A stretch of DNA of 56,901 nt from Chloroflexota bacterium (GCA_020848055.1 JADLBB010000185.1:1-56901); one strand, 5' to 3'. Counted from the stretch's first letter, positions 13,999 through 56,901 are shown. The notes: a model not told the origin generated them from the letters alone. Program-made: numbers and translations.

Positions 13999-14013
13999 GA
14001 AGCGACGGCCCAG

Positions 14014-14047: not shown

Positions 14048-14088
14048 ATGGCCGCCAAGCCCTTATCAATCTCTTATCAATTCAGGCC

Positions 14089-14116: not shown

Positions 14117-14163
14117 GGACACCAACGAAAGCGCACCGCGCGCGACACGAATGGAGGACGAGA

Positions 14164-14433: not shown

Positions 14434-14447
14434 CAGCCACCGAACCA

Positions 14448-14483
14448 ACCCGCAGGGCGCGACCAATGTGGCGCCCTGCGGGT
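14448..14483 (+). terminator. Hairpin terminator of cassette 2
   Basis: 13-bp stem acccgcagggcgc/gcgccctgcgggt with a 10-nt loop. It is near-identical to the hairpin at 14937. Confidence 0.55.
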
Positions 14484-14564
14484 CGTTCCGGTGGCGAAGA
14501 TCGCGCCCGCCCCCCAGGAAAACGACCGCTCCAAATACGTACCATATGTGGTGACGTACAGGCC

Positions 14565-14592
14565 TTGCTATCGTTCGTAAACCGAGCAATAT
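14565..14592 (+). promoter_or_regulatory. Repeated phage promoter, copy D
   Basis: TTGCTA-N16-CAATAT within ccttgctatcgttcgtaaaccgagcaatatgaac. Confidence 0.65.
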
Positions 14593-14639
14593 GAACGTCA
14601 CGACGCGCACGCGGTGCGCAGCACAAAGGAGCTAGGAAA

Positions 14640-14918
14640 GTGAACCTACCGACGGAGACCTGGGAGCGGATCGCCCTTCTTGAGGAGGCCGCGGACATGG
14701 TTTCGGAGGCCATCGCCAAGATTGAAGATGCGCTGCACGGAACGGGCCTCGCGAGATACGCCGACGCCTACCAGCTCGCCCAGCTCAAGATCCTCGCCTA
14801 CCCGAGTCACGGCTACCTCACACGCGACAAGGGGATCCACCATCTGATCGAGGACCTCAAGCAGGACGAGCGCGAGCAGCGCGAGGAGGAAGTGGACGAG
14901 GAGTACGAACCAGCCTGA
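14640..14918 (+). CDS. Small acidic protein (92 aa), cassette 3; paralog of the cassette 2 protein
   Basis: GTG start with AAGGAG 8 nt upstream. Very acidic C-terminus (DEREQREEEVDEEYEPA). Confidence 0.65.
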   Translation: MNLPTETWERIALLEEAADMVSEAIAKIEDALHGTGLARYADAYQLAQLKILAYPSHGYLTRDKGIHHLIEDLKQDEREQREEEVDEEYEPA

Positions 14919-14936
14919 TCCAGACCTACCGAATCA

Positions 14937-14972
14937 ACCAGCAGGGCGCGACACACGTGGCGCCCTGCTGGT
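14937..14972 (+). terminator. Hairpin terminator of cassette 3
   Basis: 13-bp stem accagcagggcgc/gcgccctgctggt with a 10-nt loop. Confidence 0.55.
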
Positions 14973-15006
14973 CGCTCCGGTGGGCGGCGACCGACGTTGC
15001 GATTGG

Positions 15007-30149: not shown

Positions 30150-30588
30150 GGACGACCTGCGCGCGGAGTTCGGGGGCGACTGGTCGCTGTGGGCTTCGGA
30201 CATCGACCAAGCCGTCCACGAGTTCGGCGCGTTCGTCGAGGGGAAGATCGACGAGCGGATCCACGATTACCTGCAGGAGATCCAGGACGGCAACGCGCGG
30301 CGCGCCCGGATGGCATCCAAGAGCAACACCTCGGCGTCGTTCGAGCGGCCATCCAAGGAGCACCTGCGGCGGCTCTACGACGAGGCCGTCATGTACTGGG
30401 TGCATTCGATCGTGCGCGAGTACACGGCCGTGCCGGGTGAGAAGGGGCTGTTCGACGTCAGCTGGGCCTACCAACAGAAGGCCGCGACGTTCGATCCGGC
30501 GATCGATTTCGATTGGGACGTGGGCGACATCGAGGTCGTCTACTTGGACGAGGCACCTCCAGGGATGATGAATGTCGACGACGATTGA
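30082..30588 (+). CDS. Tail assembly chaperone T-like segment (probably expressed as a frameshift extension of 29406-30149)
   Basis: This frame is open from 30037. It overlaps the upstream ORF by at least 68 nt and has no SD. Its 3' end overlaps the tape measure start. Confidence 0.5.
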   Translation: MLLWDLWQTTKASPRWSPGELLEDDLRAEFGGDWSLWASDIDQAVHEFGAFVEGKIDERIHDYLQEIQDGNARRARMASKSNTSASFERPSKEHLRRLYDEAVMYWVHSIVREYTAVPGEKGLFDVSWAYQQKAATFDPAIDFDWDVGDIEVVYLDEAPPGMMNVDDD

Positions 30589-36500: not shown

Positions 36501-36559
36501 CGCCGGCAGAATGGATCGACGCGCTGTACGGAGTCGTCGGCCTGAGGAGCGCGCCCTGA
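30572..36559 (+). CDS. Tape measure protein (1995 aa)
   Basis: Largest ORF in the window. Gly/Ala-rich hydrophobic central segments, then a long charged coiled coil in the C-terminal third. Position is canonical. Confidence 0.9.
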   Translation: MSTTIESLVGQLGYDYDKSGLNAAIGDQREFLKATTDVGAGMASTTQQGGAMGGVLGGIGKHKAGMLAVAGGAAALGLGIISATGSARNYESALASIDTLGPQVAAHHAEFKDQILDVSTAMGQDLVGSTNAVYDALSSGVPPDNVIDFMSTASKAAVAGATDTGTSVRALTATLNAWKLNAAEAGNVSDVFFTGVNVGVFRFEDLANSIGQVAPLAASLGVTYQEVTAATATLTKSGLTASQAITQQRASMVSLITPNREMSGVLKQLALDNEDVARTAEEQGISIGEAALRTLGYQGAMVAVRDSAKNADVELAKAAGSVESLGAFLGLSGENAVGAAADLDLMSSSAGASQAAFDTMAETTDAKMAKFRAAWEAAKVSVGDLFLPVLASLAEAAVPVMNFLADGARMLQPLAAGFDSLPGPIKMVGAALAAMTAGGVGLAGGAIALAPWMKHLKEFAPLADAAKGRVGGLISTLMDLGGSVAGESGLQVVLGQLPKLGSLSTVAKGGIASLTGSLSPLQSVLGMASGGLTALGTAAKGAIVAAGPIGVVLGAVALAGYAAYKGVSSANAALDEQFAAAQKAGGGFQAYLGGAQRARDESGLLGKAGFLLKDVWHGLTDAWHRGLAALQPVGEWFSSISDKAAGLIQSVTGISGGLMGLGSSLLKMIPGVGAISMLGGALTDQNGAVRDATVAWLEMEKGIDPAILKTSEFATAQAQLGAKLDDGSLSQEEYSQRLLGVARELGGVEAAGGAAAREIASTGEALAMASAGAEQAVGGFQQYSDALIGMVGGAAIGFDPNAERDEDQLEKLDKENQQQREAQAQHFGSMMQSRREFNAQHTALLAEGKTAEVATLAEQYASEQSMQVEHLAQLAINHVNSMLQMNNISEQQAQLIYGSIASAFPGADIFDGSTAAMMEFSTVMGQALAGNEEAALRLGGVIASTPDRLTEGQEAVDSYASLSIQRYEEAKAAAEAHATGISDAGAIVSTGVTSAADATGAATALMVESYASSQSAAGNHAAVTEADAARVRGALTTTADVGDSSSGRMEQAYERSGVAATQHAESTSAAGADAAGSVETMAGGIGTSLQSAGTEFKKAGQTASGAGTQIRGAFGGLGQQIEGDARRGTTALGELGTKQQEVVQQSRNLGAASQAGFGAGAGAAQQAARGIASSADDIGGALVEAGEGSVRLGDELAELPDRVEIEIEVLGMAQIFTDLRRLNGTINDIRANARRPFPIGTGDSGDNRGGGGGGGAPPRGGGPQSVLPPSSTFSAPPTWMDDLRDMADVGVSVNASLNDESGGALLSATGGDLLYKRYLDALAAADYDVTVHADLDETDILGQIDAAMQAAAGLLDILEEQHRVFLRGNEAEQGSLAWLIQNWRSSGFGEVDFAEVMRQLNVPAATLDEFIQHFEGLDPEAQGELWKRFYDDLRRMEKDRHEQRMTALKDEQDGTKKGYDDQIEGIRDAREAAQKAGVENLDAFELQIEALEKQRDTAIEGIEARRRAEEERNDAVERALEEQDRLIKRQQEDYEDGLKRAAALEKEREELRKAYHKALQDEQKENEEIEKEAHDLTLEMLADLKQAQEEQHDARLELLDEEKRREDEMHKARLAQLDDELRRERAHLDGLEDQMAELKIEMAELKLDTGPLEAAKSLLDQIKEVIGDLDDARRNRAGQVQLDDGARAALEAALATGRLSEAGARRAQRVLGGAALGAAQMRALLEEAAGLLTGNVKQEETVLDAKQRELDMLQIQIDKEKLRFDRAADAIKDQQDAEKARHDARMDAIADQVDAEKRAWDAFVDRLDAAKRAEDERHDAKMRQIEAEFRARLIAEGLIEEAGRDPEAALERARQIAEEIFGRLSQLVNGGGAAVTPPPTLVPPGPPGGPAPILPPGGPGLPPGPSPYSDGTGDDGLTPFGRFATAMQSYQQGQLASAIPVIIAGVEQAASSNALLGGVNFTYNQYAPNQVFDATDAPAEWIDALYGVVGLRSAP

Positions 36560-43626: not shown

Positions 43627-44955
43627 ATGACCGATCAACGTGATGCCCGAGGTATGCACATCAGCAACGGCCCACAGTGGCACGTCGAGGACTGCCTGCG
43701 CGCCGCCGGCGACGACGGTGCCGTGACGATCCTCCACCACCTGATGCGCGACGACCCCCTCACCCAACAGCACAGCGACATCGAGAACGGGCGCTGGTAC
43801 TCCAAGCTGCGGTTCGGGCATCCGCCGCAAGGAATCCCACCGGCGCCGAACCGGCTGATCCACGTCCGCATGTACCAGCCGAACTGGAAGTCCCTCGACC
43901 CGGTGGCATGGGCGAAGCACAGCGTCGAGATGCTGTCGGCTATCGACAGCGGCGGCCGGGTCCACAACCTGTGGAACGACCCGCTGGTATGCGTGTCGCC
44001 GGCGAACGAGCAGAACCTGCACTACGAACGCGGCGATAACAACGAGGCGAACCAGCACCTCTACCAGACGGTCGAGGCCTACCGCGAGATCGCGGCCTGG
44101 AACGCGGCCTGGGCCGACGAGGTAAACCGCCTCCTGCCCAATCGCAAAGCGCTCTTGTGCTGGCCCGCGCTGGCGTTCGGCCACGAGCCGCCCGGCTTCC
44201 AGCCCGACGGCGAGTACACCATCCCCGAGATCCGCGCCGCGATCGCGCGCTTCGAGATCATGGCCACGCACCCGTACGCGCTGCTGCACACGGCGGGCGC
44301 GAAGTCCGCTCCCGGCGGGGCCGAGGCCTACTTTTACATGCTGCGCGACTTCCGGCTGGCGGGCTTCGACAACCCGCGGGACCCGGGCGGCGTGCTGGCG
44401 CAGTTCCCCGACAAGCCGCTGCTCATCACCGAGTGCGGCACGTTCACCCACACCGCCGTAGCCCGGACGGCCGAGACGCTGGCGGCCATGAAGGCGACGC
44501 TTGCGAAGGCAGCCGCATCGGGCCGCGTGCTGGGCATCACGTGGTTCATCTGGCACAGCGACCAGGCGCACCCGACGAACGTCATCTGGCCGAACGAGGG
44601 GCTTCGCAACGCGCTCGCCAACCTGCCGCCCTACCGCACCGCAGCCGCGGTGCCGATCGCGCGCGTTTCCGGCGCGGCGCCGCTGCCTTCGCCTGTTCCG
44701 CCGACGGCACCCTCGCCCGCCCCGCCGACGTCGCCCGGTCCTACGACCCTCACCTTCGTCGTCGAGGCGCGGATCCAGGTCCTGCCAGGCGAGAAGAGCT
44801 GGTACGCCGTCGCACGCCGCGCTCTCGGCCATCCGAACGCGACAGCCAAGCACGTGGCCGCGCTGCAGGCGGCGAACCCCGTCGAGGCCGCGGGCGGGCT
44901 GAGGGTCGGCCAGTGGCTGCGCTCGCCCTGGCACAAGGTCGAGAGGAGCGGCTGA
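43627..44955 (+). CDS. Clan GH-A-like TIM-barrel glycoside hydrolase with a C-terminal LysM-like domain (lysin/depolymerase)
   Basis: PANEQN (acid/base NE) and LLITECG (nucleophile E) spaced as in (beta/alpha)8 clan A hydrolases. A Pro-rich linker precedes VLPGEKSWYAVARRALG...LQAANPV..GGLRVGQWLRSP. GGGAGGG upstream of the ATG at 43627. Confidence 0.55.
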   Translation: MTDQRDARGMHISNGPQWHVEDCLRAAGDDGAVTILHHLMRDDPLTQQHSDIENGRWYSKLRFGHPPQGIPPAPNRLIHVRMYQPNWKSLDPVAWAKHSVEMLSAIDSGGRVHNLWNDPLVCVSPANEQNLHYERGDNNEANQHLYQTVEAYREIAAWNAAWADEVNRLLPNRKALLCWPALAFGHEPPGFQPDGEYTIPEIRAAIARFEIMATHPYALLHTAGAKSAPGGAEAYFYMLRDFRLAGFDNPRDPGGVLAQFPDKPLLITECGTFTHTAVARTAETLAAMKATLAKAAASGRVLGITWFIWHSDQAHPTNVIWPNEGLRNALANLPPYRTAAAVPIARVSGAAPLPSPVPPTAPSPAPPTSPGPTTLTFVVEARIQVLPGEKSWYAVARRALGHPNATAKHVAALQAANPVEAAGGLRVGQWLRSPWHKVERSG

Positions 44956-45695
44956 TGGGCTGCCGTCCCTACACGACGACCGTCAAGCCGGGCGACGGCT
45001 GGTACCGCATCGCATCTCGGTTCCGCATCACCGCTGCCGAGCTCACGGCCGCCAACGGCGCGACGCTGCGCACAGTCCTGCACCCGGGCATGGAGCTCGT
45101 GGTGCCCGGGCGCTGCGCCGAGGTGCCGCCGGCGGCGCCGGGTCCGATCGACACGAAGCCCTCGTTCATCTGGGTCACGTCGACCGACGACGATACCGAG
45201 GAGCGGTGGTACCTGCGAAATCGCCGCACGATCTTCATCGTCGTGCACGACCCCGTAGCCGGCTCGCCGGACGGGCTGCTCCGCTACCTGAAGCGCAACG
45301 ACCGCCAGGTCAGCTACGACGACGTGCTCGTCCCTGGCTCGCCGCCAAAGGCGCACGTGCTCGTGCCGTCGGCCGACTGGTGGGTGGGGCACGCCGGCGG
45401 CGGCACCGCGACCGACGTGCGCACCGGGATCGTGTTCGGCAAGGCCGCGGGCGGCAACCTGAACCACGTCTCGTGGGGCGTGTGCATCTACAAGCACGCT
45501 GAAGATGGCGGCCCGTTCAGCGAGCCGCTGTACACGGCGGCCGTGGCGCTCGTCGCGGCGCGTGCGCGTCAGTTCGACGTCGACCCCCAGAACATCCTCG
45601 CCCACCGTGAGGTGGACCCAACGCGGCGCTCGGATCCGCGAGGCGTGAACATCGCCCGCTTCCGTGCGCACGTGATCGAGGCGATGAACCTGTAG
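44955..45695 (+). CDS. LysM + N-acetylmuramoyl-L-alanine amidase (Amidase_2/PGRP) endolysin
   Basis: N-terminal LysM (YTTTVKPGDGWYRIASRFRITAAELTAANG...LHPGMELVVP). The amidase part contains IVVHD..., WVGHAG, and ILAHREVDPTRRSDP. Confidence 0.8.
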   Translation: MGCRPYTTTVKPGDGWYRIASRFRITAAELTAANGATLRTVLHPGMELVVPGRCAEVPPAAPGPIDTKPSFIWVTSTDDDTEERWYLRNRRTIFIVVHDPVAGSPDGLLRYLKRNDRQVSYDDVLVPGSPPKAHVLVPSADWWVGHAGGGTATDVRTGIVFGKAAGGNLNHVSWGVCIYKHAEDGGPFSEPLYTAAVALVAARARQFDVDPQNILAHREVDPTRRSDPRGVNIARFRAHVIEAMNL

Positions 45696-46314: not shown

Positions 46315-46357
46315 GAGGGTCTGCGGGAGAAGGTCTGTAAGGCAAAGAGTGCGATCC

Positions 46358-46395
46358 GCGAGCCCTCACCCCCAACATCGGAGGTGGGGGCTCGC
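46358..46395 (+). terminator. Hairpin terminator ending the late/lysis operon
   Basis: 13-bp stem gcgagccctcacc/ggtgggggctcgc (one G:U pair) with a 12-nt loop. Confidence 0.5.
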
Positions 46396-46493
46396 TCTAT
46401 CACGGGGCCTCAAACAAGGGGCCTTGACCAGGCCGCCTGCATGGCCGTAATCTTCGCGCCTCGCCTGACCAGTTGCCTCCCGGAGCAAAATTA

Positions 46494-48452
46494 GTGAACG
46501 ACCCCATCGCGACCTCCTGGGCACACAAGCCCTCTCTCGGGCAGCTGACATTGCCAACCTATTCTGAACGATTCCTTGAGTCCTATGCCGGCAAGATTGT
46601 CACGTCACCGCTCGTGGCCCTGGTGGAATTGGTTGCCAATTCCTGGGATGCGGGCGCCGTTCTTGTTGACCTGACCTGGCCAGATGAAGGTCAGTCGACA
46701 TTTCGACTTTCCGACAATGGTGTCGGTATGAAACATGATGATGTGTGGGGCCGATGGCTCAATCTAAGCTACAACCGACAGAAGGCACAAGGCGAGAATG
46801 TCGTCTTTCCTCCAACAACGGAGCGCACGCATCGGAAAGCATTTGGGCGGAACGGCAAGGGAAGACTCGCGCTATTCGCGTACTGTGACCAATACGTTTT
46901 GACGACTTGGCGTGATGGTCTATTCAATTCGTATCGGGTTGCCCTCACCTCTGGCGGAACGGTGCCCTATAGCGTCGATCACATTGAGACTGGTGACAGA
47001 GACGGATCTGGCACAATGTTCGAAGGGACTCTTGTGAGAAACCATCTGTCACCTACGATGATGGCCCGCGAACTTGCGATGAGATTCATCATCGATCCAA
47101 AGTTTATGATTCAGGTAAACGGACGCAAGATTGACGCTGGCGACCAAGGCATTCCTACTACCGCGCATCCTTTTACGTCTGGTCCTTTCGACTTCGAGAT
47201 AAAGCTCTACGCCGGCTCCAAAAGCGGCCGCCTAAGTGGGTATCACGGGGTAGCATGGTGGGTGAACAGTCGACTGGTCGGCACGCCGTCTTGGAATCGC
47301 CTTGCAAAGGGTCGTCCATACTTGGACGCGCGCACGACATTCGCGAAGCGGCACACAATTATTGTGGAGGCAGACGGACTTGCCAATCATGTTCTCGACG
47401 ACTGGTCTGGATTTGACGAAGACGAAGTTACAACGAAGGCAATCGACGACGTAGAGGGATACGTTGCCGCGATCTGCCAATCGCTGGTAGCCGACCTTCA
47501 TCGCGAACAGAAGACGGATGTCCTTCGCGCCAATGCGGTCGAAATGCGCGCTCTCCCTCCAGGTTCGCGCCACGCAGTAGGCGAGCTGATTTCTGAAATG
47601 CAACGAAGGGTTCCCACGATCGACGAGGATGTCCTAAGTGCAACGGTGGCCGCTGCCTCCAACATCCTGAACGCGAGGTCCGGTCACGCACTACTCCGGC
47701 AACTGGCCGATCTGTCGCTTGATGATCTAGATGGACTGCATCGCCTTCTGGCGAACTGGACGGTTCAGGAAATCCGCATCATTGTTGACGAACTGCAGCG
47801 GCGACTGGATCTCGTCAAGAAGCTAGAAGAGGTGACCTCTCGATCCAGCGACGAACTCCACGAGGTCCAACCACTATTTGACACAGGATTGTGGATCTTT
47901 GGCCCTGAGTACGATGGCATTTCATTCATGTCCAATCGCGCCCTGGCCACTGTGATCAAGAAGTACTTCGCAAAGCAGATAGATGTAAGCCTCATTGAGG
48001 ATCCGGCATCGAGGCCAGACATTGTGGTCACGAGCGACATGTCACTTCGCGTGTTTGCGCGGGATCATTACGACGACACGTTTAATGTTAGCGGGTTTGA
48101 AACAGTGCTTCTACTTGAATTGAAGCGTGGAGGACATACAGTGAATGACAACAACGTGTTCCAGGCGATGAAGTACGCGGCCGAATTGCGTCGAACGAAT
48201 GCTGTACAAGCAGACACGAAAATCGTTTGCATGATATTGGGCAGCAAGATTGCTTGGGGCGTGGGTGAAATGCGGAAGCCGGAGCAGAACATCAGATGTC
48301 TTCCGCGCGACTTTCAGACGGTCCTTCGTCAGGCGCACGCACGGACGTTCAATATTCTTCGACAAATTGAGGACGCCAATGGAGGCGCTATTTACGACAG
48401 CGAAGTCGAGGCCGCGATCATGCAGGCTCCAATTCCCTTCGAAGAGATATAG
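46494..48452 (+). CDS. GHKL (Bergerat-fold, MORC/HATPase_c_3-like) ATPase fused to a C-terminal PD-(D/E)xK nuclease of Shedu/DUF4263 type
   Basis: N box ELVANSWDAGA, G1 box SDNGVGM, G2-like GRNGKGRLA, and GSGTMFEG. The C-terminus carries LFDTGLWIFGPEY, RPDIVV (Asp), LLLELKRG (Glu-x-Lys) and QAMKY (QxxxY). GC is much lower than the phage backbone. GGAG lies 8 nt upstream of the GTG at 46494 (an alternative TTG lies at 46473). Confidence 0.7.
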   Translation: MNDPIATSWAHKPSLGQLTLPTYSERFLESYAGKIVTSPLVALVELVANSWDAGAVLVDLTWPDEGQSTFRLSDNGVGMKHDDVWGRWLNLSYNRQKAQGENVVFPPTTERTHRKAFGRNGKGRLALFAYCDQYVLTTWRDGLFNSYRVALTSGGTVPYSVDHIETGDRDGSGTMFEGTLVRNHLSPTMMARELAMRFIIDPKFMIQVNGRKIDAGDQGIPTTAHPFTSGPFDFEIKLYAGSKSGRLSGYHGVAWWVNSRLVGTPSWNRLAKGRPYLDARTTFAKRHTIIVEADGLANHVLDDWSGFDEDEVTTKAIDDVEGYVAAICQSLVADLHREQKTDVLRANAVEMRALPPGSRHAVGELISEMQRRVPTIDEDVLSATVAAASNILNARSGHALLRQLADLSLDDLDGLHRLLANWTVQEIRIIVDELQRRLDLVKKLEEVTSRSSDELHEVQPLFDTGLWIFGPEYDGISFMSNRALATVIKKYFAKQIDVSLIEDPASRPDIVVTSDMSLRVFARDHYDDTFNVSGFETVLLLELKRGGHTVNDNNVFQAMKYAAELRRTNAVQADTKIVCMILGSKIAWGVGEMRKPEQNIRCLPRDFQTVLRQAHARTFNILRQIEDANGGAIYDSEVEAAIMQAPIPFEEI

Positions 48453-48505
48453 CAGGCTGCAACGTGTAGTCCCCAAGATTCGTCCGTCTGCCGGTTGCTT
48501 GCCAC

Positions 48506-48521
48506 CCGAACGCCCGTTCTA
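48506..48521. promoter_or_regulatory. LexA (Cheo-type) box upstream of the 84-aa gene
   Basis: ccGAAC-GCCC-GTTCta. The 14-mer GAACGCCCGTTCTA is identical to the one at 55694-55707. It lies between TTGCCA (48499) and TACTAT (48520). Confidence 0.55.
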
Positions 48522-48535
48522 CTATCCTCTCCCGC

Positions 48536-48790
48536 ATGCGCTCGTACGACCCGCCCCTCCCCATCCGCGCCCGCGTCGCAGTCGACGGCGCGCCCCACTC
48601 GTTCGTCCTGGACGGCGTGACCTACGTCGTCGAGACGATCGAGGAGGTCCGCGCGCCGTGCCTCGACTGGTGGACGGCGACGCCGGCGCACCGGACGTAC
48701 TACCTCGTCACGACGAACCGCGGGATGGTCGCCGAGCTCGTGCGGGACGAGGTGGCGGGGACGTGGGGGGTGGCGCGACGGTTGGATTGA
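48536..48790 (+). CDS. Small protein (84 aa), DUF6504-like by recollection
   Basis: ORF with high GC, unlike its neighbours. PHSFVLDGVTYVVETIEE....WW.......YYLVTTNRGMVAELVRDEVAGTWGVARRLD. No SD, and the -10-like TACTAT lies 10 nt upstream of the ATG, so the mRNA may be leaderless. Confidence 0.5.
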   Translation: MRSYDPPLPIRARVAVDGAPHSFVLDGVTYVVETIEEVRAPCLDWWTATPAHRTYYLVTTNRGMVAELVRDEVAGTWGVARRLD

Positions 48791-49080
48791 CCGCGTGGGC
48801 GAACCGTCACGGCGACTGTTGCGCCGTTGTGTACTCGATGGACCGCAGCCAGATCGTCAGGTGCCAATTGCACAGCCATTGGCTGGTACTGTCAGGCTGA
48901 GGCACTCAGTCGTCAGAAGTACTCGGCTCTGTGCCCGGTCCGACACGGCCGACACTTCCCACTGTCGGAGCATGCACTCGCGTTCTTCCGACCACTCGCA
49001 CCTGTCCGACCAGCTCGGGGGCGTACGAGATCTCACCCGCAACGTGCGTCGCCGATGACCGCAAGCGATAGGGGCCGTCG

Positions 49081-50268
49081 CTAAGGCTCACCGCTAGGTC
49101 CGTCTGTGGCCCCGTGGTCAGCTCCATCTGCACCTCGGCCTCCTCCCGCGATCAGCTGATCTGTCGATCGCCAACAGGCGCTCTTCTGGACACTCGTGAC
49201 GCGCAGCTCGGATGAGGGGAGTCGCTGCGCGTTGATCACTCCGCGCATCTCGAACCGACTCGCCCAACGGGCGCTCTCCATCAAGGCGAGCACGAGAGTG
49301 TAGTCAACCGGCGGCACCATGACAACTTCCAGTTTCTGAAGCACGTTCTGCAGAACCTGCTGTTGGACCTCAGGCGGCAATCCGGCCGGGATGTTCACCT
49401 GAGGAGCCGGGCCGAACAGCGCTGCTGCCGCTCCGGATGACGCCAGTTCTGAGGTCGGGTTGAACGGTTCGCGCGTATTTAGCTCGGCTTCGATGTCCTG
49501 CCACACTGCGGAAATCAGCCCCTCAAGGTCAGGCTCCGGCCTAATCACCTTCAACCCCATCTGTTCGGCCTCGGTTCGGCTCAAAGGGTACCCGTGTGCC
49601 TGGAATGTCTTGTTGAGCGCCTCCGCTATGTTGCGAGCCTGCTGAGCTTCAGCGTCGGACGCCATGTGCATACGGAGTAGCTTCTCTCCCATGCTGAGAG
49701 ATAGCTGCGTGCTGCGCGCCGCAACACCGATAGGGACGGCACCAACCTCTGAGCAGAGGAGCTCGAACACTCGTACAAGCTGGCCCTGATCAGTCAGGCC
49801 AACTGTGTTACGCGCAAAGTCGAGGAACGCGGCAGCATCTTCTGAACCGAACGCAGTCTGGGTGGCTGGCCCCTCGTCGCCTGACCGGCGTACAGAGGTT
49901 ATCTGGGGATCGATCGGCCCCAGGTTCCCGTAACGGTGCATGACAATCTCGTCTGCCCCGAGCGCGATGAGCGTGGCTGCACTGAAAGCCGCTTGAGGAA
50001 CCAGAACCGCGAAATGGTCCACCCTCTCGCGAATGTGGGACACCATGCGCCATGCCACAAGCGGATCGCCGCCGTTGCTCGCCAGTAGCAGGTCGAGGCA
50101 TGTTGCATCGGCCGGCAGTGCATCCAGCTGGCGGAGGAGCTCGCCGATCGCATCTGAGCTGATCTTGGCAGTTGCACCGGGCCGCGTGCCTGTGACGTAC
50201 GCGACCAATGGCCTTCCACGTATCTGCTCAATGTTGGAGTACAAGGCCATACGGCGTTCGATTCCCAT
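49081..50268 (-). CDS. SDH-family ClpP/crotonase-fold serine protease (S49/SppA-like)
   Basis: LDLLLASNGGDPLVAWRMVSHIRERVDHFAVLVPQAAFSAATLIALGADEIVMHRYGNLGPIDPQ matches the serine dehydrogenase proteinase family pattern. GGAGGG lies 10 nt upstream of the ATG at 50268 (the ORF extends to 50322). Confidence 0.7.
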   Translation of the reverse strand: MGIERRMALYSNIEQIRGRPLVAYVTGTRPGATAKISSDAIGELLRQLDALPADATCLDLLLASNGGDPLVAWRMVSHIRERVDHFAVLVPQAAFSAATLIALGADEIVMHRYGNLGPIDPQITSVRRSGDEGPATQTAFGSEDAAAFLDFARNTVGLTDQGQLVRVFELLCSEVGAVPIGVAARSTQLSLSMGEKLLRMHMASDAEAQQARNIAEALNKTFQAHGYPLSRTEAEQMGLKVIRPEPDLEGLISAVWQDIEAELNTREPFNPTSELASSGAAAALFGPAPQVNIPAGLPPEVQQQVLQNVLQKLEVVMVPPVDYTLVLALMESARWASRFEMRGVINAQRLPSSELRVTSVQKSACWRSTDQLIAGGGRGADGADHGATDGPSGEP

Positions 50269-50487
50269 GGTGTTGTTACCCTCCGCGAGGTTCTGCGGTG
50301 CATCGACAAGTGCGAATAGCATGATGCGCCACCATGCGATTCAAATCCAACGGCAGCGGAACCTGGCAGCGCAGCGACTGGAGGGTCCTGAGAAACGCTC
50401 CCGTAGTACGCTCTCCGATCCCAGCCGCCTTGCCCCCAGCCTCCGCCCCAGGTATAACCCCGCGCCACCCTGGAGGCCCGCCCCCAC

Positions 50488-53304
50488 ATGACCCCCCAAC
50501 AATTCGTCGCCACCTGGAAGAACGTCACCCAGACCGAGCGCGCCACGTCGCAGACGCACTTCAACCATCTCTGCCAGCTGCTCGGCGTCGACGACCCGGT
50601 CACCGGTGACCCGACCGGCCAGACGTACGCATTCGAGCCGGGCGTCCGCAAGTCGAGCGGTGGCCAGGGATGGGCGGACGTCTGGAAGCGTGGGCACTTC
50701 GGGTGGGAGTACAAGGGGCCAGGGCGCGACCTCGAGGCGGCGTACCGCCAGCTGCTCAACTACAAGGACGCCCTCGAGAACCCGCCGCTGCTGATCGTCA
50801 GCGACATCCAGACGATCATCGTCCGCTCCAACTTCACGAACAGCGTCCAGCGCACTCGCGTGTTCACCGTCGAGGGGATGCTGGACCCGGCCGAACGCGA
50901 CGCGCTGCGTGCCATCTGGACAAACCCCGAGGCGTTCAGGAGCCGACGGACCACCGAGGCCGTCACACGGGAGGCGGCGACGCAGTTCGCCAAACTCGCC
51001 GACCATCTGCGCGCCAAGGATGTGGCGCCGGACGCGGCCGCCCACTACCTGATCCGGCTGCTGTTCTGCCTCTTCGCCGAAGACATCGGGCTGCTGCCGA
51101 AGAGCCTGTTCACGACGCTGGTGCACAGCGGTCATCGCCAGCCGGAGCGCTTCAACAACCAGCTCCGCACACTCTTCGCGGCGATGAGCACCGGTGGCTA
51201 CTTCGGCGCCGATGACATCCTCCACATCAACGGCCGGCTGTTCGACAGTGCTGCCGTGATCGACCTGGACAGCGACGCCCTGTGGATCCTGAAGGGGGTC
51301 TGCGACCTGGACTGGTCGGCGATCGAACCCGCGATCCTCGGCACGCTGTTCACGCGCTCGCTTGACCCGGCGATGCGCGCCCAGCTCGGCGCGCAGTACA
51401 CGAGCCGTGACGACATCCTGCTCGTCGTCGAGCCGGTGCTCATGGCGCCGCTGCGTCGTCGATGGGCGGAGGTGAAGGCGCAGGCCGAGGCGATCGCGGC
51501 CGAGCGCGACACTGCGCCGGCGGGGAGCGCGCGGACGAAGAAGGATAACCAGCTGCGCGCCGTCCTCGTCGCCTTCGCGCAGGAGCTCGCCCGCATCCGC
51601 GTCCTCGACCCCGCCTGCGGCAGCGGCAACTTCCTCTACGTCGCCCTCCTGTTGCTGCTCGACCTCTGGAAGGAGGTCTCGACCGCCGCTGCGGACTTCG
51701 GGCTGTCACTGCTCATGCCGACCGATGACCAAGCTCCGTCGCCAGCGCAGCTGCACGGCATCGAGATCAACGAGTACGCCCACGAGCTGGCGCAGGTGAC
51801 GATCTGGATCGGCTACATCCAGTGGATGCGCGACAACGGGTTCGGGCGGCCGGGCGAGCCGGTGCTCAAGCCGATCGACACGATCGAGCATCGGGACGCA
51901 ATCCTGGCGTTCGACGCGGAGGGGAGGCCGGTTGAGCCGGAGTGGCCGGCGGTGGATGTGGTCGTCGGGAATCCGCCCTTCCTGGGCACGAAGCTGATGC
52001 GTGCAGGTCTCGGTGATGCCATTGTCGATCGCCTCTTCGAACTGTACGACGGCAAGGTGGCGCGGGAGTCCGACCTCGTCGTCTATTGGTTCCACCGTGC
52101 TCAGCAACTCGTGGCCAGCGGCCGACTCAAGCGCGTGGGTCTGCTTGCCACGAACTCCATCCGAGGAGGCGCGAATCGTCGCGTCATCGAGGACATCAAG
52201 CGAAGTGGCGACATCTTCATGGCATGGAGTGACCGCCCTTGGATTCTGGACGGCGCCGCCGTAAGGGTGTCAATGGTCGGGTTCGACGACGGCTCGGAGC
52301 ACGACCGCAACCTCGACGGCATGTCCGTCTCCGAGATCCACTCCGACTTGACGAGCGGCGGCGCAGATCTGACTCAGGCAGTACGGCTGGTCGAGAACGT
52401 CGGGCTCGCGTTCATGGGCGACACGAAGGGCGGCGCGTTCGACGTCAATGATGTGACTGCGACGGCGATGCTGGCCGCCAAGGGCAACCCAAATGGTCGA
52501 CCAAACAGCGACGTCGTGCGGCCCTGGGTGAACGGCATGGACCTGACGCGTCGACCGCGGGGGATGTGGATCATCGACTTCGGCATCGATTCCACGCAGG
52601 ACTCTGCATCGGGCTACGAGCGGCCGTTCGAACACGTCGTGTCACACGTGAAGAAAGACCGTGACCGCAATCGTCGCGACGCCTATCGCCTGCGCTGGTG
52701 GCTTCACATGGAGCCTCGTCCAGCGATGCGCCAGGCTCTGGCATTACTACCGCGCTTCATCTGCACGCCTCGGGTGTCAAGCCATCGGGTGTTTGTCTGG
52801 CTGTCCCCACCGACACTCCCAGACAGCGCCACAATAGCCATCGCGCGCGACGATGACTACTTCCTTGGCGTCCTCCACTCCCGCGCCCACGAGCTGTGGT
52901 CGCTCCGCATGGGCACGTGGCTGGGCGTCGGCAATGATCCGCGCTACACGCCGACGACCACGTTCGAGTCGTTCCCCTTCCCCTGGCCCCCCGGCCACGA
53001 GCCGGCCGACGACCACCGCGTCCTCACAATCGCCACCGCCGCCCGCGAGCTCGTCGAGCAGCGCGACCGCTGGCTCAACCCCGATGAAGCCACCGAGGCT
53101 GAGCTGAAGAAGCGGACGCTCACCAACCTGTACAACCAGCGGCCGACGTGGCTTGACCTCGCACACCGGAGGCTAAATGAGGCGGTGCTGGACGCGTTCG
53201 GGTGGCCTCGGGACTTAGGGGACGAGGAGCTGCTGGAGCAACTCTTGGCGCTGAATCTTGATCGGGCGAGTCGATCTGCAGCGACGGACAGGGTCACCAA
53301 GTGA
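50488..53304 (+). CDS. MmeI-family type IIL (IIG) restriction-modification enzyme: N-terminal D-X9-E-X-K nuclease, gamma-class N6A methyltransferase and TRD
   Basis: GWADVWKRGHFGWEYKG gives D64-X9-E74-X-K76. Motif I is VLDPACGSGNFL and motif IV is VVGNPPF. The 938-aa size and domain order match the MmeI family. GGAGG upstream. Confidence 0.75.
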   Translation: MTPQQFVATWKNVTQTERATSQTHFNHLCQLLGVDDPVTGDPTGQTYAFEPGVRKSSGGQGWADVWKRGHFGWEYKGPGRDLEAAYRQLLNYKDALENPPLLIVSDIQTIIVRSNFTNSVQRTRVFTVEGMLDPAERDALRAIWTNPEAFRSRRTTEAVTREAATQFAKLADHLRAKDVAPDAAAHYLIRLLFCLFAEDIGLLPKSLFTTLVHSGHRQPERFNNQLRTLFAAMSTGGYFGADDILHINGRLFDSAAVIDLDSDALWILKGVCDLDWSAIEPAILGTLFTRSLDPAMRAQLGAQYTSRDDILLVVEPVLMAPLRRRWAEVKAQAEAIAAERDTAPAGSARTKKDNQLRAVLVAFAQELARIRVLDPACGSGNFLYVALLLLLDLWKEVSTAAADFGLSLLMPTDDQAPSPAQLHGIEINEYAHELAQVTIWIGYIQWMRDNGFGRPGEPVLKPIDTIEHRDAILAFDAEGRPVEPEWPAVDVVVGNPPFLGTKLMRAGLGDAIVDRLFELYDGKVARESDLVVYWFHRAQQLVASGRLKRVGLLATNSIRGGANRRVIEDIKRSGDIFMAWSDRPWILDGAAVRVSMVGFDDGSEHDRNLDGMSVSEIHSDLTSGGADLTQAVRLVENVGLAFMGDTKGGAFDVNDVTATAMLAAKGNPNGRPNSDVVRPWVNGMDLTRRPRGMWIIDFGIDSTQDSASGYERPFEHVVSHVKKDRDRNRRDAYRLRWWLHMEPRPAMRQALALLPRFICTPRVSSHRVFVWLSPPTLPDSATIAIARDDDYFLGVLHSRAHELWSLRMGTWLGVGNDPRYTPTTTFESFPFPWPPGHEPADDHRVLTIATAARELVEQRDRWLNPDEATEAELKKRTLTNLYNQRPTWLDLAHRRLNEAVLDAFGWPRDLGDEELLEQLLALNLDRASRSAATDRVTK

Positions 53305-53384
53305 CGCATGCGAGCGCGCCATTCGCATTCGGCCGACTGGCATGAGCAGCCACGAGTCGAACTGTATGCCGAGAGGAGAAGGCT

Positions 53385-54194
53385 GTGTCCAGGAAACGGC
53401 GTGACGACACTCAATCTGCAGCAGACGCACTCGAAGCCGCCGCAAAGGCGATGCAGGGAATGCAGTCCATAGCGGTGTCCGGAACGATGTCGCCGCCGCC
53501 CGCCACCGGCCGCGTCACGGCCATGTCCCCTCGGCACTCAACCGATCGCGAGGGCACGGCATCGACAAATCCCGACATGACCATCGACCGCGCCTTTGCT
53601 CAGTTCGAGGGCTGGCACCTTGGCATCGCCACGAAGTGCCTCGACATTCCACACGGGGCGTTCGGCGCGCTGTGCATCGCCTTCAGCTACTTCGAGACAG
53701 TCTGGCAGCTCACCAGAGGAGAGTCGAGCAAGGGGAGGAGTTCCGAGGCGTTTCGTGAGGGGCTCCTCCTGGTCTTCCCGGCACTCGATGCATGCTCCGA
53801 GTCCGATCTCAAATCGCTCAGCGAGGCGCTCTATGGCGGCTTCCGGAACTCGTTCTTCCACAACATGATCGTCGGTCATAGCGTCGCGATCGCGGTCTAT
53901 CCCTGGCTCCTCCTCATGCTCAGGGACGGTACTCCCGTTTTGGCGCTGTCGAACGATGGCGCCATGTTCGGCACAAGCGAGCTGCCAGATGAGTATGGTG
54001 TCGACGCTCGACGCTATGCGGGCACGCAAGGCGACTTCATCTGCCTGAATCCCCACACATTCATCCCGGCGCTGGTCAGTCACCTAGGCCAGTTCCGGAC
54101 AGAGATCGAGACCGGTACGGACGATGGCAAGGATCGCTTTCTCCGTGGCTACTGGGGGCTGCTGGGCGCTCGCCCGGAGGGTCAGCCCAATTAG
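53385..54194 (+). CDS. Hypothetical protein with an Rx4H (HEPN-like) motif
   Basis: AGGAG lies 8 nt upstream of the GTG at 53385. The predicted helical protein contains GGFRNSFFHN (R154-x4-H159). An alternative ATG lies at 53577. Confidence 0.45.
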   Translation: MSRKRRDDTQSAADALEAAAKAMQGMQSIAVSGTMSPPPATGRVTAMSPRHSTDREGTASTNPDMTIDRAFAQFEGWHLGIATKCLDIPHGAFGALCIAFSYFETVWQLTRGESSKGRSSEAFREGLLLVFPALDACSESDLKSLSEALYGGFRNSFFHNMIVGHSVAIAVYPWLLLMLRDGTPVLALSNDGAMFGTSELPDEYGVDARRYAGTQGDFICLNPHTFIPALVSHLGQFRTEIETGTDDGKDRFLRGYWGLLGARPEGQPN

Positions 54195-54570
54195 CAACTG
54201 GCCAGCGGCGCGTCGACGCGCACGTCTTGTCCCCGCGTTATCCCCATCTCATCCACACCCAGCCCACCCCCGTGCAACCCAACCCCCCGTCCTGCGTATA
54301 GCCCCCACCAAGCGCGACAAGGCGACCGCGGGATTGCGCCCCACGGCCGCCCATAGCGGGTTGAGGTAACCCGCCGTAACAGAGTATACGCGCCGTGCAT
54401 TGGAGGTGATGCACCGTGGAAGACCCCCCACCAGAACCCAGCGCCGCCCGCGCGCGCCACCAGCCGCCACGCGCCCTCAGGCGCTCCTGGCCGCGGCGTA
54501 GCACCGGCACGCAAGGCGGTCGCCGGCGGCGCTGAGTCCGACCCCCAACGACAACTTAACGCCTGGGCCC

Positions 54571-54613
54571 TTGCCACCCCTGGCCGTGTCCGTACAATAG
54601 AACACCCGTTCTA
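54571..54613 (+). promoter_or_regulatory. Strong promoter overlapped by a perfect palindromic LexA-type box
   Basis: TTGCCA-N16-TACAAT. TAGAAC-ACCC-GTTCTA (54598-54613) starts at the last base of the -10 element. Confidence 0.65.
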
Positions 54614-54640
54614 ATTGTGCTTGCGCGAAGGGATTCGGCA

Positions 54641-54916
54641 ATGGCTCTCGGCACCGGCTCTGGAACTGTCCCCCACGGCGACGCTCCGGTGCGGCTCTTC
54701 ATCACCTGCGATGTCGGCCGCCAGCGCTTCAGCTTCCGGTCGTTCATCGGACCCTTCGGCGTCGACGAGGAGTCGACGTTGATCGAGCAGAGCGGCGTGG
54801 ACGACATCCACACTGAGGCGGTCCTCGCTGCAGCGTCGGAGTTCGCTCACGACCTCCGGACTACGATCGAGGCCATCCTTCGGCGCGATGCAGTGGAGGC
54901 GAACCAGGACCGGTGA
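54641..54916 (+). CDS. Small protein (91 aa) under the boxed promoter; antirepressor candidate
   Basis: AAGGGA upstream of the ATG at 54641 (the ORF opens at GTG 54617). No recognisable domain. Confidence 0.5.
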   Translation: MALGTGSGTVPHGDAPVRLFITCDVGRQRFSFRSFIGPFGVDEESTLIEQSGVDDIHTEAVLAAASEFAHDLRTTIEAILRRDAVEANQDR

Positions 54917-55657: not shown

Positions 55658-55707
55658 CGTGACCCGCGTAACGACTAGAATGGACGTTCTAGAGAACGCC
55701 CGTTCTA
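55654..55707 (+). promoter_or_regulatory. int promoter with two tandem LexA-type boxes
   Basis: TTGACG-N16-TAGAAT. Box 1 is TAGAAT-GGAC-GTTCTA (55676-55691, which includes the -10). Box 2 is GAGAAC-GCCC-GTTCTA (55692-55707). GGAGG and the ATG follow. Confidence 0.65.
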
Positions 55708-55720: not shown

Positions 55721-56773
55721 ATGAACGCGCCGTCGCCTGACTCCACCGTCGCCGCCTACCTCGACTGGTGGGCCTCCACGCACGTCGCGCGCCTGCGCAC
55801 GAACACCCGCGAGAACTACCTGAAGGGCGTCGAACTCTACCGGCCGGAGCTGGGCAGCGTCCTCATGCGTGACCTCGGGCCGCAGCACCTGCAGCGGATT
55901 GTCGACGCCCAGGTCGAGGAAGCGCACTACTGCCCGAACACGATCCGGTTGTTCTTCGGCGTGATCCGCTCCGCCCTGCGCCGCGCGGCCGTCGAACACC
56001 GCCTGCTGGAGTACAACCCCGCACCGATGGTCCGGCTGCCATCACGCAACCCGGTCCGGTCCAAGGCCTTCGGCCGCGACGACGCCGTGGCGTTCATCAA
56101 CGAGGCCCTCGCTCCCGACGGCACGGGCGGGCGCCACTACCACGGCGTCATGCTGACGACGGCCATCAAGACCGGCATGCGCTTCGGCGAGCTGCGCGGC
56201 CTGCGGATCGACAACCTCGAGCTGCGCGACGCGCCGACCGGCAGCCTTGGAGGGATCGTCCGGATCTGTGAGCAGATCGCGTCCAACGTCTCGCGGGCCG
56301 AGTGGAGCGAGCCCAAGACCGTGGCCAGCCACCGCGAGATCCCGGTCTCGCCCGACCTCGCCGGCATCCTGCGGCGCCACCTCGAGCGGCTGGCCATCCA
56401 GCGGCGACGGGTCGGGACTCGGAAGTGGCAGGACAACCAGCTGGTGTTCCCGGCGCTCCGCGGCGGCCTGGTCATGAGCAAGGACCTGGCTTGGGCCAGA
56501 CGCACGATCGCCCTCTCGGCCGGCCTCTCACGGATCCCCACGATGCACTGTCTGCGTCATACCTATGCCACCCAATTGGCTAATGGACGCATCCGCCCTG
56601 AGGCTTTGCAGGAGGTCGTCGGGCACGCCGACATTCGGACCACGATGAACGTCTACTACGACGCGACCGAGGAGACGCTCGAAGAGGTCGCGGCCGCCGT
56701 GGCGGATTGGTCGCGTGAGGGGCTTGACAACAGACCACGCGCCGGATACAATGGACTTCGCCCGAACGGATGA
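55721..56773 (+). CDS. int: Tyrosine integrase
   Basis: N-terminal SAM-like core-binding domain. Catalytic residues are present in order: R (TGMRFGELRGL), K, HCLRH (H-x-x-R), GHADIRTT (H) and NVYYD (Y). Confidence 0.9.
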   Translation: MNAPSPDSTVAAYLDWWASTHVARLRTNTRENYLKGVELYRPELGSVLMRDLGPQHLQRIVDAQVEEAHYCPNTIRLFFGVIRSALRRAAVEHRLLEYNPAPMVRLPSRNPVRSKAFGRDDAVAFINEALAPDGTGGRHYHGVMLTTAIKTGMRFGELRGLRIDNLELRDAPTGSLGGIVRICEQIASNVSRAEWSEPKTVASHREIPVSPDLAGILRRHLERLAIQRRRVGTRKWQDNQLVFPALRGGLVMSKDLAWARRTIALSAGLSRIPTMHCLRHTYATQLANGRIRPEALQEVVGHADIRTTMNVYYDATEETLEEVAAAVADWSREGLDNRPRAGYNGLRPNG

Positions 56774-56774: not shown

Positions 56775-56901
56775 CTACACGGGCGTTCGGTCGGAGATAA
56801 CAATTACATATCAGGATCAGTACGCATTTGGGTCCTTGAAACTTAGCAGGAACGTGCGTGCAATGATCTTGAAATCGAGGAGCAACGACCAATTTTCAAT
56901 A
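56775..56901. repeat. Terminal identity, copy 2 (identical to 1-127)
   Basis: Same 127-mer as 1-127. It lies immediately downstream of the int stop codon (56773). Confidence 0.95.

Follow-up and report, generated by a model that had tools for sequence, protein, structure and literature searches.

The locus analysed here raises the question of whether neighbouring accessory genes in a phage genome constitute one defence system or several. The window, a stretch of 56,901 nucleotides from a Chloroflexota bacterium (GCA_020848055.1, JADLBB010000185.1:1-56901), carries five genes that an initial annotation described as a low-GC island of defence-type genes: (i) a GHKL ATPase/PD-(D/E)xK nuclease fusion (geneA), (ii) an 84-aa gene preceded by a LexA box (geneB), (iii) a divergently oriented SDH/ClpP-fold serine protease (geneC), (iv) an MmeI-family type IIL enzyme (geneD), and (v) a protein with an Rx4H motif (geneE). 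All five open reading frames (ORFs) are present where they had been placed, and the domain calls are upheld by HMM searches or motif checks. The reading of the locus as an accessory island of defence-type genes on a temperate phage is likewise supported. The cassettes are mostly of known kinds, and they do not make up a new five-gene system.

Phage Genome and Island Borders

With an exact terminal overlap of 127 nt, the window closes into a circle and represents a complete phage genome of ~56.8 kb. It encodes a portal, a major capsid protein, a tape measure protein, and an O-like replication initiator. The sequence is not that of a prophage embedded in a host chromosome; an assembly chimera was considered and dropped because the contig closes on itself and its genes are intact. 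The phage is temperate and probably infects a Chloroflexota bacterium akin to Ardenticatenales. Among 50,697 phage DNA records, none showed DNA similarity to the island or to the late region.

The island lies, as initially annotated, between the lysis and lysogeny modules. An endolysin with LysM and Amidase_2 domains (44157-45695 frame) is found just 5′ of it, and the last late-region ORF, with its stop at 46314, is directly upstream of a G+C-rich hairpin (46358..46395, + strand) that forms the left edge. The hairpin has a 13-bp stem and a folding energy of −33.7 kcal/mol for 46340-46400 (RNAfold), and it is terminator-like yet devoid of a U tract. The right-hand landmark is a tyrosine integrase (55721..56773, + strand) that matches PF00589 (E = 6.2e-18) and phrog_1 (E = 7.7e-56); a promoter-like site and a GAACGCCCGTTC box (55694-55705) lie ahead of it.

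The described fall in G+C content to a roughly balanced composition holds for geneA, which at 53.8% (z = −4.8 relative to 69.6 ± 3.3% elsewhere) is the sole strongly low-GC gene, but not for the remainder of the island (61-66%) or for geneB (72%). The GC3 also differs by gene, with values of 0.58 (geneA), 0.95 (geneB), 0.68 (geneC), 0.85 (geneD), and 0.78 (geneE); that of the phage core genes is 0.88-0.93.

The GHKL ATPase-Nuclease

geneA (46494..48452, + strand) encodes a protein of 652 aa that consists of a GHKL ATPase, a middle region, and a C-terminal RecB-like PD-(D/E)xK nuclease, and its start is that of the NCBI product (P0001). The N-terminus matches HATPase_c_3 (PF13589) with an E-value of 1.1e-13 and, together with the conserved nuclease motif, confirms the annotated fusion. 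The Bergerat motifs are intact (E45/N49/D52, D74xGxG78, G121 and G123 within GRNGKGR, and T174), and the nuclease follows the pattern RPD...ExK...QxxxY (E454, D509, E542xK544, and Q557xxxY561). These ATPase and nuclease residues are invariant in a 20-sequence alignment (A1) with the exception of E454 and E542, which are invariant in alignment A4. The middle region (residues ~230-400), where paraMORC3 proteins have an S5-fold or transducer-like domain, has no Pfam match even at E = 10.

The predicted architecture of geneA is paraMORC3- or Shedu type 1D-like, with an N-terminal GHKL domain bearing intact motifs and a C-terminal E-D-ExK nuclease. This GHKL-nuclease architecture corresponds to the paraMORC3 of Iyer, Abhiman and Aravind (2008; PMC2292703) and is classed as Shedu type 1D (PMC10441436). 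VcSduA, the type 1D Shedu protein of Vibrio cholerae WASA strains, combines a GHKL ATPase with DUF4263 and is a validated single-gene defence in which ATPase and nuclease mutants are both inactive (PMC12137116). geneA shares with it a length of ~650 aa and the succession of HATPase_c_3, middle region, and C-terminal PD-(D/E)xK domain with E-D-ExK residues. VcSduA/paraMORC3 proteins and the geneA family are also alike in being scattered over bacteria and archaea; they are often encoded as single genes, and a subset has RM neighbours.

Unlike VcSduA, geneA is borne by a Chloroflexota phage, and neither DUF4263 nor SduA was matched in it by Pfam, PADLOC, or Foldseek. Pfam detected no DUF4263 (PF14082) in the C-terminal 252 aa at E ≤ 10, PADLOC made no SduA call, and a PDB sequence/profile search returned GHKL domains only and no SduA. 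The model of the C-terminal region (pLDDT 79.5) has EndoMS as its best nuclease match, a weak one (Foldseek; probability 0.91, E = 0.098), and the same comparison with the PDB gave nothing at E ≤ 1e-3 and no SduA/Shedu match. Exact-protein look-ups with P0001 and with the geneD product gave no match. With a phage protein annotated as ParaMORC3, the profile alignment spans only the N-terminal ~200 residues. The BbrUII/HgiDII type II restriction enzyme model (NF050001) was rejected, since its score of 92 bits falls below the cut-off of 550 and the alignment covers only model positions 25-209. By analogy with VcSduA, ATP binding or hydrolysis by a dimeric GHKL clamp would gate the C-terminal nuclease, which would cut invading DNA.

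Neighbours of the GHKL-Nuclease Family

Members of the geneA family occur in 564 bacterial and archaeal species genomes, and neighbouring genes were counted around the GHKL-nuclease homologues at 80 species-level loci. The association of paraMORC-type GHKL ATPases with RM loci that was described by Iyer et al. (2008; PMC2292703), and on which the initial annotation drew, is real: a gamma-type N6A methylase gene lies within 5 kb of the homologue at 19 of the 80 loci and directly adjacent to it at 10. Methylase genes are ~20-fold enriched near the homologues relative to a roughly estimated background rate, and cooperation of geneA with an RM enzyme in trans is therefore possible.

The annotation went further in suggesting that the GHKL-nuclease and the MmeI-family enzyme could be one composite RM-type system. 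In this view, which may extend to the intervening genes, the GHKL ATPase would loop or remodel DNA for the methylase-nuclease, a role that has been proposed for MORC/paraMORC operons. Such cooperation was predicted by Iyer et al. (2008; PMC2292703), and apart from the methylases within 5 kb at 19 loci, large Eco57I/MmeI-type fusion enzymes directly adjoin the homologue on the same strand in ~10/80 loci. Helicase-GHKL-methylase operons also exist, with an SNF2 helicase, the GHKL protein, and a DrmMI-like methylase at L007, L015, and L018. The island departs from composite MORC/paraMORC-RM, Hma, or DISARM-like systems in that it has no helicase and its methylase-bearing gene is 2 kb from geneA, with three genes between them, two of which are on the opposite strand. 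The GC3 values of geneA and geneD (0.58 vs 0.85) differ as well. Across the family, 61 of the 80 loci lack such a methylase within 5 kb, only six have an MmeI-like gene within 10 kb, and de novo clustering of the neighbours revealed no universal partner. VcSduA works alone (PMC12137116), and the MmeI gene occurs alone elsewhere at ~88% nucleotide identity. A composite system is quite unlikely on this evidence, and the GHKL-nuclease is taken here as a cassette of its own.

The MmeI-Family Enzyme

geneD (50488..53304, + strand) encodes an MmeI-family type IIL/IIG RM enzyme in a single polypeptide of 938 aa. MmeI_N, MmeI_hel, MmeI_Mtase, and MmeI_TRD all match in this order; PF20464, PF20465, and PF20473 score above their cut-offs, while the TRD (PF20466) reaches 22.2 bits vs 27. 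A PADLOC run on the island, one of the checks originally proposed, calls geneD type IIG (PDLC03627, 911 bits), and this call and the four Pfam domains bear out the type IIL assignment. The translation contains a D64-x9-E74-x-K76 nuclease motif as well as the methylase motifs DPACGSGNFL (I) and GNPPF (IV).

The D-x9-E-x-K spacing is that of MmeI, which is self-sufficient as a single polypeptide. Both proteins have the four MmeI domains, D-x9-ExK, NPPF, and a TRD and are encoded without a separate methylase or specificity gene; geneD differs in being phage-encoded and in having a TRD match below the Pfam cut-off. geneD would methylate one strand of its site and cleave unmodified DNA at a distance.

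A solitary gene on the Ardenticatenales MAG contig JADYYS010000036.1 shares 87.7% nucleotide identity with geneD over 2809 bp. The homology ends at the gene borders, and the flanks are unrelated.

The SDH Protease and an Overlooked Small Partner

geneC (49081..50322) encodes an SDH-type ClpP-fold serine protease of 413 aa as annotated; the alignment points to the ATG at 50271 as the true start, which would give 396 aa. It occupies the minus strand and matches PF01972 with E = 1.5e-16 (60.7 bits vs a cut-off of 31.3), as expected of the divergent protease initially described. Further matches are NF047768 (E = 1.4e-19, below its cut-off) and phrog_11747 (E = 2.8e-39). The 523 homologues, at 46-60% identity, have invariant S114, D138, H129, H219, and H243, and the C-terminal extension is conserved. 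Some of these homologues sit amid housekeeping genes, which counts against a defence role.

The five-gene description of the island missed a sixth gene. A 73-aa ORF (48906..49127, − strand) that NCBI did not annotate shares 47 nt with the 3′ end of the protease gene, has a GC3 of 0.68, equal to the protease's, and carries 'SLSDGPYRLRSS'. At 40 of 66 dereplicated protease loci, a same-strand ORF with GP[HYF][RK] or [DQKL]PHR is found downstream of the protease, compared with 1 of 66 in the reverse-strand control. These small proteins have a conserved N-proximal GP[HYF][RK] motif (LLxSxGP[FYH]R-type) and a variable C-terminal tail, and the 73-aa ORF is the small partner conserved with the SDH protease. 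Small ORFs gave no Pfam match at E = 10. To our knowledge, the motif has not been described previously.

The pair recurs as a compact insert whose surroundings vary and include defence islands that contain TIR, MmeI, GmrSD, HEPN, and AbiE genes, and 11 protease loci were found among 2.9 million viral contigs. It resembles FS_HP_SDH_sah, a two-gene DefenseFinder system of a hypothetical protein and an SDH_sah protease that presumably originates from phage-inducible chromosomal islands: both combine an SDH-type ClpP-fold protease, identified here by PF01972, with a small protein on a mobile element. The pair has no match in PADLOC 2.0, and a literature search on SDH_sah turned up only a passing mention. 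Protease and partner may be a protease/substrate or protease/inhibitor pair that would be turned on during infection.

The protease-MmeI neighbourhood recurs once elsewhere, at L081/L082, where a TIR gene, an SDH protease, a 42-aa ORF, and an MmeI-family enzyme follow one another on one strand, with identities to the window's proteins of 51% (protease) and 41% (MmeI enzyme). This arrangement could point to the pair and geneD as a functionally linked unit, for example in protease-controlled restriction. It is, however, the only other case in 95 protease loci, ~37 of which are flanked by 3 kb or more, and the genes are co-directional there and divergent here. No protease adjoins the nearly identical MmeI gene of the Ardenticatenales MAG, and the GC3 of the protease (0.68) differs from that of the MmeI gene (0.85). 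A linked unit is accordingly very improbable, and the protease pair and geneD are treated as two cassettes.

The Rx4H Protein

geneE (53385..54194, + strand; NCBI start 53460) encodes a protein of 244-269 aa. The family comprises only two close homologues and 414 representatives at E ≤ 1e-3. W52, E79, R129, and H134 are invariant in 48 aligned sequences, so that the Rx4H motif noticed in the single sequence proves to be a family trait. The R-N-x3-H dyad (R-[NC]-x3-H in the family) lies at the end of a long helix; the protein is mainly helical, and its model is confident (pLDDT 92).

Pfam has no match to geneE at E = 10, and no Pfam family matches any of the 48 family members. Foldseek comparison of the model with the PDB and BFVD gave none at E ≤ 1e-3 (best PDB E = 0.76), a PDB sequence search gave no match, and screens of viral contigs for relatives yielded either nothing or no pattern of use. 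Two distant relatives lie in non-defence contexts, and the contigs with geneE relatives are too short or uninformative. The invariant R/H dyad (R129, H134), set in a mainly helical protein, is shared with the HEPN superfamily of Rx4-6H RNases; unlike HEPN proteins, the geneE family matches no HEPN Pfam family in its 48 members and no solved structure by Foldseek. As judged from the motif, this small protein with its invariant dyad may be a HEPN-like RNase.

A bolder proposal, possible though doubtful, covers both this protein and the protease pair. The protease and its small partner would be a widespread two-gene mobile module in which the protease recognises or cleaves the partner at the motif and thereby arms or disarms an infection response, and the Rx4H protein would represent a new fold family of small effectors.

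Probable SOS Control and the Phage's Own Cycle

geneB (48536..48790, + strand; NCBI IT341_07125) is preceded by a sigma-70-like promoter (TTGCCA-18-TATCCT; 48499..48528, + strand), and a perfect GAAC-N4-GTTC box (GAACGCCCGTTC; 48508-48519) lies between the −35 and −10 hexamers. The palindrome thus overlaps the promoter, which, at the level of sequence only, conforms to a LexA (SOS) regulon of the Cheo-box type. The window contains three such boxes vs 0.58 expected by chance; those at 48508, 54600, and 55694 are all confined to the final 8.4 kb, each at a promoter-like site. The 84-aa product has a sub-threshold match to DUF6504 (PF20114; E = 8.7e-4, 19.9 bits, cut-off 24.2), on which a literature search gave no papers. 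The possibility that geneB is spurious and an antisense 99-aa ORF real was dropped in view of the GC3 values (0.95 vs 0.66) and the promoter and box upstream of geneB. The LexA box seen initially does precede the gene, but the gene probably does not belong with the defence cargo. Because its composition is native (GC3 0.95) and it is under SOS-box control, geneB is probably an SOS-controlled phage gene, not an imported one, and would be part of the phage's own regulation.

With three LexA-type boxes and the integrase adjoining the island, the other genes might also serve the lytic or lysogenic cycle of the phage instead of host defence. The MmeI enzyme would then self-methylate the phage genome and evade host restriction, the GHKL-nuclease would degrade host DNA or process phage DNA, the protease, on SOS induction, would cleave a repressor or some other protein of phage or host, and the Rx4H protein would shut off host RNA. 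The protease is indeed distantly related to ClpP-type prohead proteases, as indicated by weak NCBIfam and PHROG matches, and these exact families have no known defence phenotype. Nevertheless, homologues of geneA and the protease pair are overwhelmingly chromosomal and scattered across phyla, and their surroundings vary and are often defence islands; a search of 2.9 million viral contigs found only 16 loci for geneA, on IMG/VR contigs, and 11 for the protease pair. The foreign composition points to cargo and not to a core function, and the MmeI enzyme retains an intact D-x9-ExK nuclease motif. A role in the phage's own cycle is unlikely for these genes.

A Probable Mosaic Island

The island is likely, if by no means certainly, a mosaic accessory ('moron') island of four cassettes, acquired separately, that most likely work independently in protecting the lysogen against other phages and mobile DNA: (i) the GHKL-nuclease, (ii) the SDH protease with its small protein, (iii) the MmeI-family enzyme, and (iv) the Rx4H protein, with geneB between the first two. 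Separate origins are supported by the variation of the GC3 between genes and the recurrence of the MmeI gene alone. The gene-by-gene differences in composition and this solitary recurrence at 87.7% DNA identity also speak against the five genes being one system. The gene content, motifs, composition, neighbourhood counts, and separate recurrence of the MmeI gene are observations, and the defence phenotype and mechanism of each cassette are what we infer; two components are poorly understood, and the locus is otherwise an ordinary phage defence island.

Prophages and satellites are known for defence hotspots, such as those of P2 and P4 and the prophage-mediated defence of mycobacteriophages. 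The island resembles them in holding variable, compositionally foreign cassettes at a fixed accessory position near an integrase and differs in its host phylum, Chloroflexota, and its cassette set. A complete temperate phage of the little-studied Chloroflexota is hereby seen to carry a defence island of the enterobacterial and mycobacterial prophage kind. The case also cautions that physical proximity inside a defence island is poor evidence for a composite system. Two leads emerge, namely the protease/small-protein pair, which has a clear sequence signature and is overlooked by current annotation, and the Rx4H protein family, whose fold is predicted with confidence and for which no relative is known. 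The composition and the shared cassette show that such islands are put together one gene at a time out of the host gene pool.

Genomic context

Bases 1-127 of the contig are identical to 56775-56901, and this exact terminal direct repeat of 127 nt therefore identifies a complete, circularly closed phage genome of ~56.8 kb (about 56,774 bp). NCBI files the contig within a Chloroflexota MAG; this phage genome is closed and free, not integrated in host DNA as a prophage, and no related phage was found at the DNA level among a 50,697-record phage collection. Its phage functions include an O-like replication initiator (7280-8701), portal (18595-21381), major capsid protein (24131-25525), and a 1995-aa tape measure protein (30572-36559). 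The initial annotation placed the accessory island between the lysis and lysogeny modules, and this placement holds, with an endolysin (LysM and Amidase_2; frame 44157-45695) upstream and a tyrosine integrase (55721-56773) downstream.

Several other features mark this genome. The portal ORF is unusually long (928 aa), and the match of its C-terminal ~200 residues to a separate family, phrog_24776 (unknown function), suggests a fusion. In the early region, units repeat every ~480-540 bp across ~13526-14983, each with a conserved “CTTGCTATCG...CCGAGCAATATG” element (three copies: 13526-13587, 14063-14151, and 14559-14627). Together with two G+C-rich hairpin-forming repeats (14439-14494 and 14928-14983), they resemble small units of promoter, gene, and terminator arrayed in tandem, and GC is also low here (57.8% at 13251), as in few other places outside the island. 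A 733-aa ORF without a PHROG match (1315-3516) contains an 18-nt periodic, imperfect, G/T-rich “GTGGxCGTG”-like repeat at 2368-2631. A single tRNA-Met (CAT) gene (958-1030), which on the circular map lies ~1 kb beyond the integrase, could be phage-encoded or attachment-site-related.

Composition of the island

A G+C-rich hairpin with a 13-bp stem (46358-46395) follows the final late-region ORF, whose stop is at 46314. Outside the island, GC is 69.6 ± 3.3% in 500-nt windows and core genes have a GC3 of 0.88-0.93. The roughly balanced GC first ascribed to the whole island is confined to the GHKL-nuclease gene (GC 53.8%, z = -4.8; GC3 0.58), while the other genes span 61.5-72.2%; the island is therefore compositionally heterogeneous. 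The values are 72.2% (GC3 0.95) for the 84-aa gene, 61.5% (0.68) for the SDH protease, 64.9% for the small ORF after it, whose GC3 equals that of the protease, 66.1% (0.85) for the MmeI gene, and 62.6% (0.78) for the Rx4H gene. These at least four composition classes point to separate acquisitions, and the 84-aa gene appears to be the phage's own.

The 84-aa gene and its upstream box

The 84-aa gene (48536-48790), which has only a sub-threshold DUF6504 match, lies downstream of a promoter-like site whose two hexamers flank a perfect GAACGCCCGTTC. Perfect GAAC-N4-GTTC boxes occur at 48508-48519, 54600-54611, and 55694-55705 (three observed versus 0.58 expected by chance per genome) and have the common extended form GAAC[GA]CCCGTTCTA[AC]T. 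All three coincide with sigma-70-like promoters, before the 84-aa gene, a 99-aa ORF (54617-54916), and the integrase, respectively; a one-mismatch copy is present at 55678-55689. This arrangement suggests that SOS/LexA, or a phage repressor of the same site, may control the lysogeny switch and the integrase. Because of its native composition and LexA-type box, the 84-aa gene more likely belongs to SOS-linked regulation of the phage, for example as an antirepressor-like factor.

The GHKL-nuclease

The GHKL-nuclease (46494-48452) carries a HATPase_c_3 GHKL domain (E = 1.1e-13) and belongs to a well-conserved family of ~650-aa proteins with members in 564 bacterial and archaeal species-representative genomes. 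The family alignment conserves the Bergerat ATP-binding motifs and, toward the C-terminus, E454, RPD509, E542-x-K544, and Q557-xxx-Y561, a RecB-type PD-(D/E)xK signature. The structure predicted for the last 253 residues (pLDDT 79.5) has no PDB match at E ≤ 1e-3; its best nuclease match, a weak one, is EndoMS/NucS (probability 0.91, E 0.098). Hits to type II restriction enzymes in NCBIfam and PADLOC are confined to the GHKL portion and score far under the cut-offs.

VcSduA, which has the same GHKL plus PD-(D/E)xK architecture, protects alone and depends on both its ATPase and nuclease residues (PMC12137116); Gu et al. class this architecture as Shedu type 1D (PMC10441436). The phage protein is filed by its predicted architecture as paraMORC3-type. 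Shedu membership is not regarded as demonstrated for it, since searches with Pfam, PADLOC, and Foldseek detected no DUF4263 domain. On the VcSduA analogy, its RecB-like nuclease would be licensed on foreign DNA by a dimeric clamp gated by ATP. A 652-aa ParaMORC3-annotated protein adjoins a Dcm methylase at a portal-proximal accessory position in the P2-like coliphage Escherichia phage PhiR44_1 (L195, 3923-6971), and its alignment to the GHKL-nuclease is confined to the GHKL region.

The MmeI-family enzyme

The MmeI gene (50488-53304) encodes MmeI_N, MmeI_hel, MmeI_Mtase, and MmeI_TRD in order (the TRD under the cut-off), scores 911 bits against the PADLOC type IIG model, and holds D64-x9-E74-x-K76, DPACGSGNFL, and NPPF. 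Its product is, as judged from these motifs, an intact single-polypeptide type IIL enzyme and is filed as an MmeI-family member. MmeI-type enzymes methylate one strand of their site and cut unmodified DNA ~20 bp away, and this protein would act in the same manner.

A near-identical gene occurs in an Ardenticatenales MAG (JADYYS010000036.1; L196, 9967-12768), which matches 50454-53255 of the phage at 87.7% nucleotide and 90% amino acid identity. The shared homology spans 34 nt before the start to 50 nt before the stop. The MAG gene is solitary, chromosomal, and beside an IS1595 transposase, with neighbours unrelated to those in the phage. This suggests recent exchange with Ardenticatenales-like Chloroflexota, and hence a host among them.

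The SDH protease and its small partner

Full-length relatives of the SDH-type ClpP-fold protease (PF01972; 49081-50322, minus strand) number in the hundreds at 46-60% identity, with invariant Ser, Asp, and His residues. Its homologues are nearly always followed by a same-strand small ORF of 45-130 aa (95 loci), with a gap of about -100 to +90 nt. These ORFs are too diverged for recognition by BLAST, but a short motif recurs in most of them: GP[HYF][RK], often inside LLxSxGP[FY]R, or DGPHRLL. Among 66 dereplicated protease loci with enough downstream sequence, 40 have a motif-bearing ORF downstream, versus 1/66 when the opposite strand of those regions is read. In the phage, the partner (48906-49127, minus strand), which is missing from the NCBI annotation and was overlooked initially, has ...VSLSDGPYRLRSSATH... 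in its translation and shares 47 nt with the 3' end of the protease gene.

The protease and small ORF behave as a compact mobile cassette whose surroundings vary: TIR and MmeI genes (L081/L082), an island with GmrSD, HEPN, AbiE, and NERD genes, an adjoining IS element and integrase, or housekeeping genes among which the pair is inserted. It may correspond to FS_HP_SDH_sah, a two-gene system listed by DefenseFinder. Speculatively, the protease would contact or cleave the small protein at the conserved motif, and cleavage or release during infection would trigger a response.

The Rx4H protein

The Rx4H protein (53385-54194) has only two close relatives, and profile searches extend its family to 414 representatives, mostly of ~190 aa, with invariant W52, E79, R129, and H134. 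None of 48 family members has a Pfam match, and the very confident model (pLDDT 92, pTM 0.88) has no significant match in PDB or BFVD; it is therefore the Rx4H dyad that suggests the protein may be a HEPN-like RNase.

One system or several cassettes

The initial annotation proposed that the GHKL-nuclease and MmeI enzyme could form one composite system. This is not borne out: the MmeI gene recurs solitary at 87.7% DNA identity, the two genes differ greatly in composition, and three genes, two on the other strand, separate them. Across the neighbourhoods of 80 species-level GHKL-nuclease loci there is no universal partner gene. Pfam annotation of 138 same-strand neighbours returned Eco57I/MmeI-type methylase fusions (11), HsdM-type methylases (8), SNF2/ResIII helicases (9), integrases and resolvases, BREX parts, AAA_15/21 ATPases, Schlafen/AlbA domains, and many unrelated genes. 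With a locally built profile, a gamma-type N6A methylase lies within 5 kb in 19/80 loci and is directly adjacent in 10/80; an MmeI-like protein lies within 10 kb in six.

The methylase enrichment is real and fits the account of Iyer et al. 2008, who also describe the nuclease-bearing paraMORC3 family as often standalone (PMC2292703). The suggested link between GHKL ATPases and restriction-modification loci thus stands at the family level (19/80) but does not make the phage pair a unit. GHKL-nuclease homologues between or beside an SNF2 helicase and a DrmMI-like methylase (L007, 6789-16221; L018, 12092-19345; L015) form a DISARM/Hma-like arrangement that may be a genuine composite variant of the family.

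Elsewhere, the protease-MmeI neighbourhood recurs in one element only (L081, 5433-10862; L082, 897-6326), which encodes a TIR-domain protein, SDH protease, 42-aa ORF, and MmeI-family enzyme on one strand; an Mrr-like nuclease lies nearby. Among the remaining ~37 protease loci that are informative, none shows this adjacency, and no protease accompanies the near-identical MmeI gene in the Ardenticatenales MAG. Each cassette probably acts alone.

Phage-borne defence islands near integrases are familiar, and both MmeI-type enzymes and GHKL-nuclease (paraMORC3/Shedu 1D) proteins belong to known kinds. The protease pair and the Rx4H protein are the least understood parts of the island, and two sub-findings are worth an experiment.
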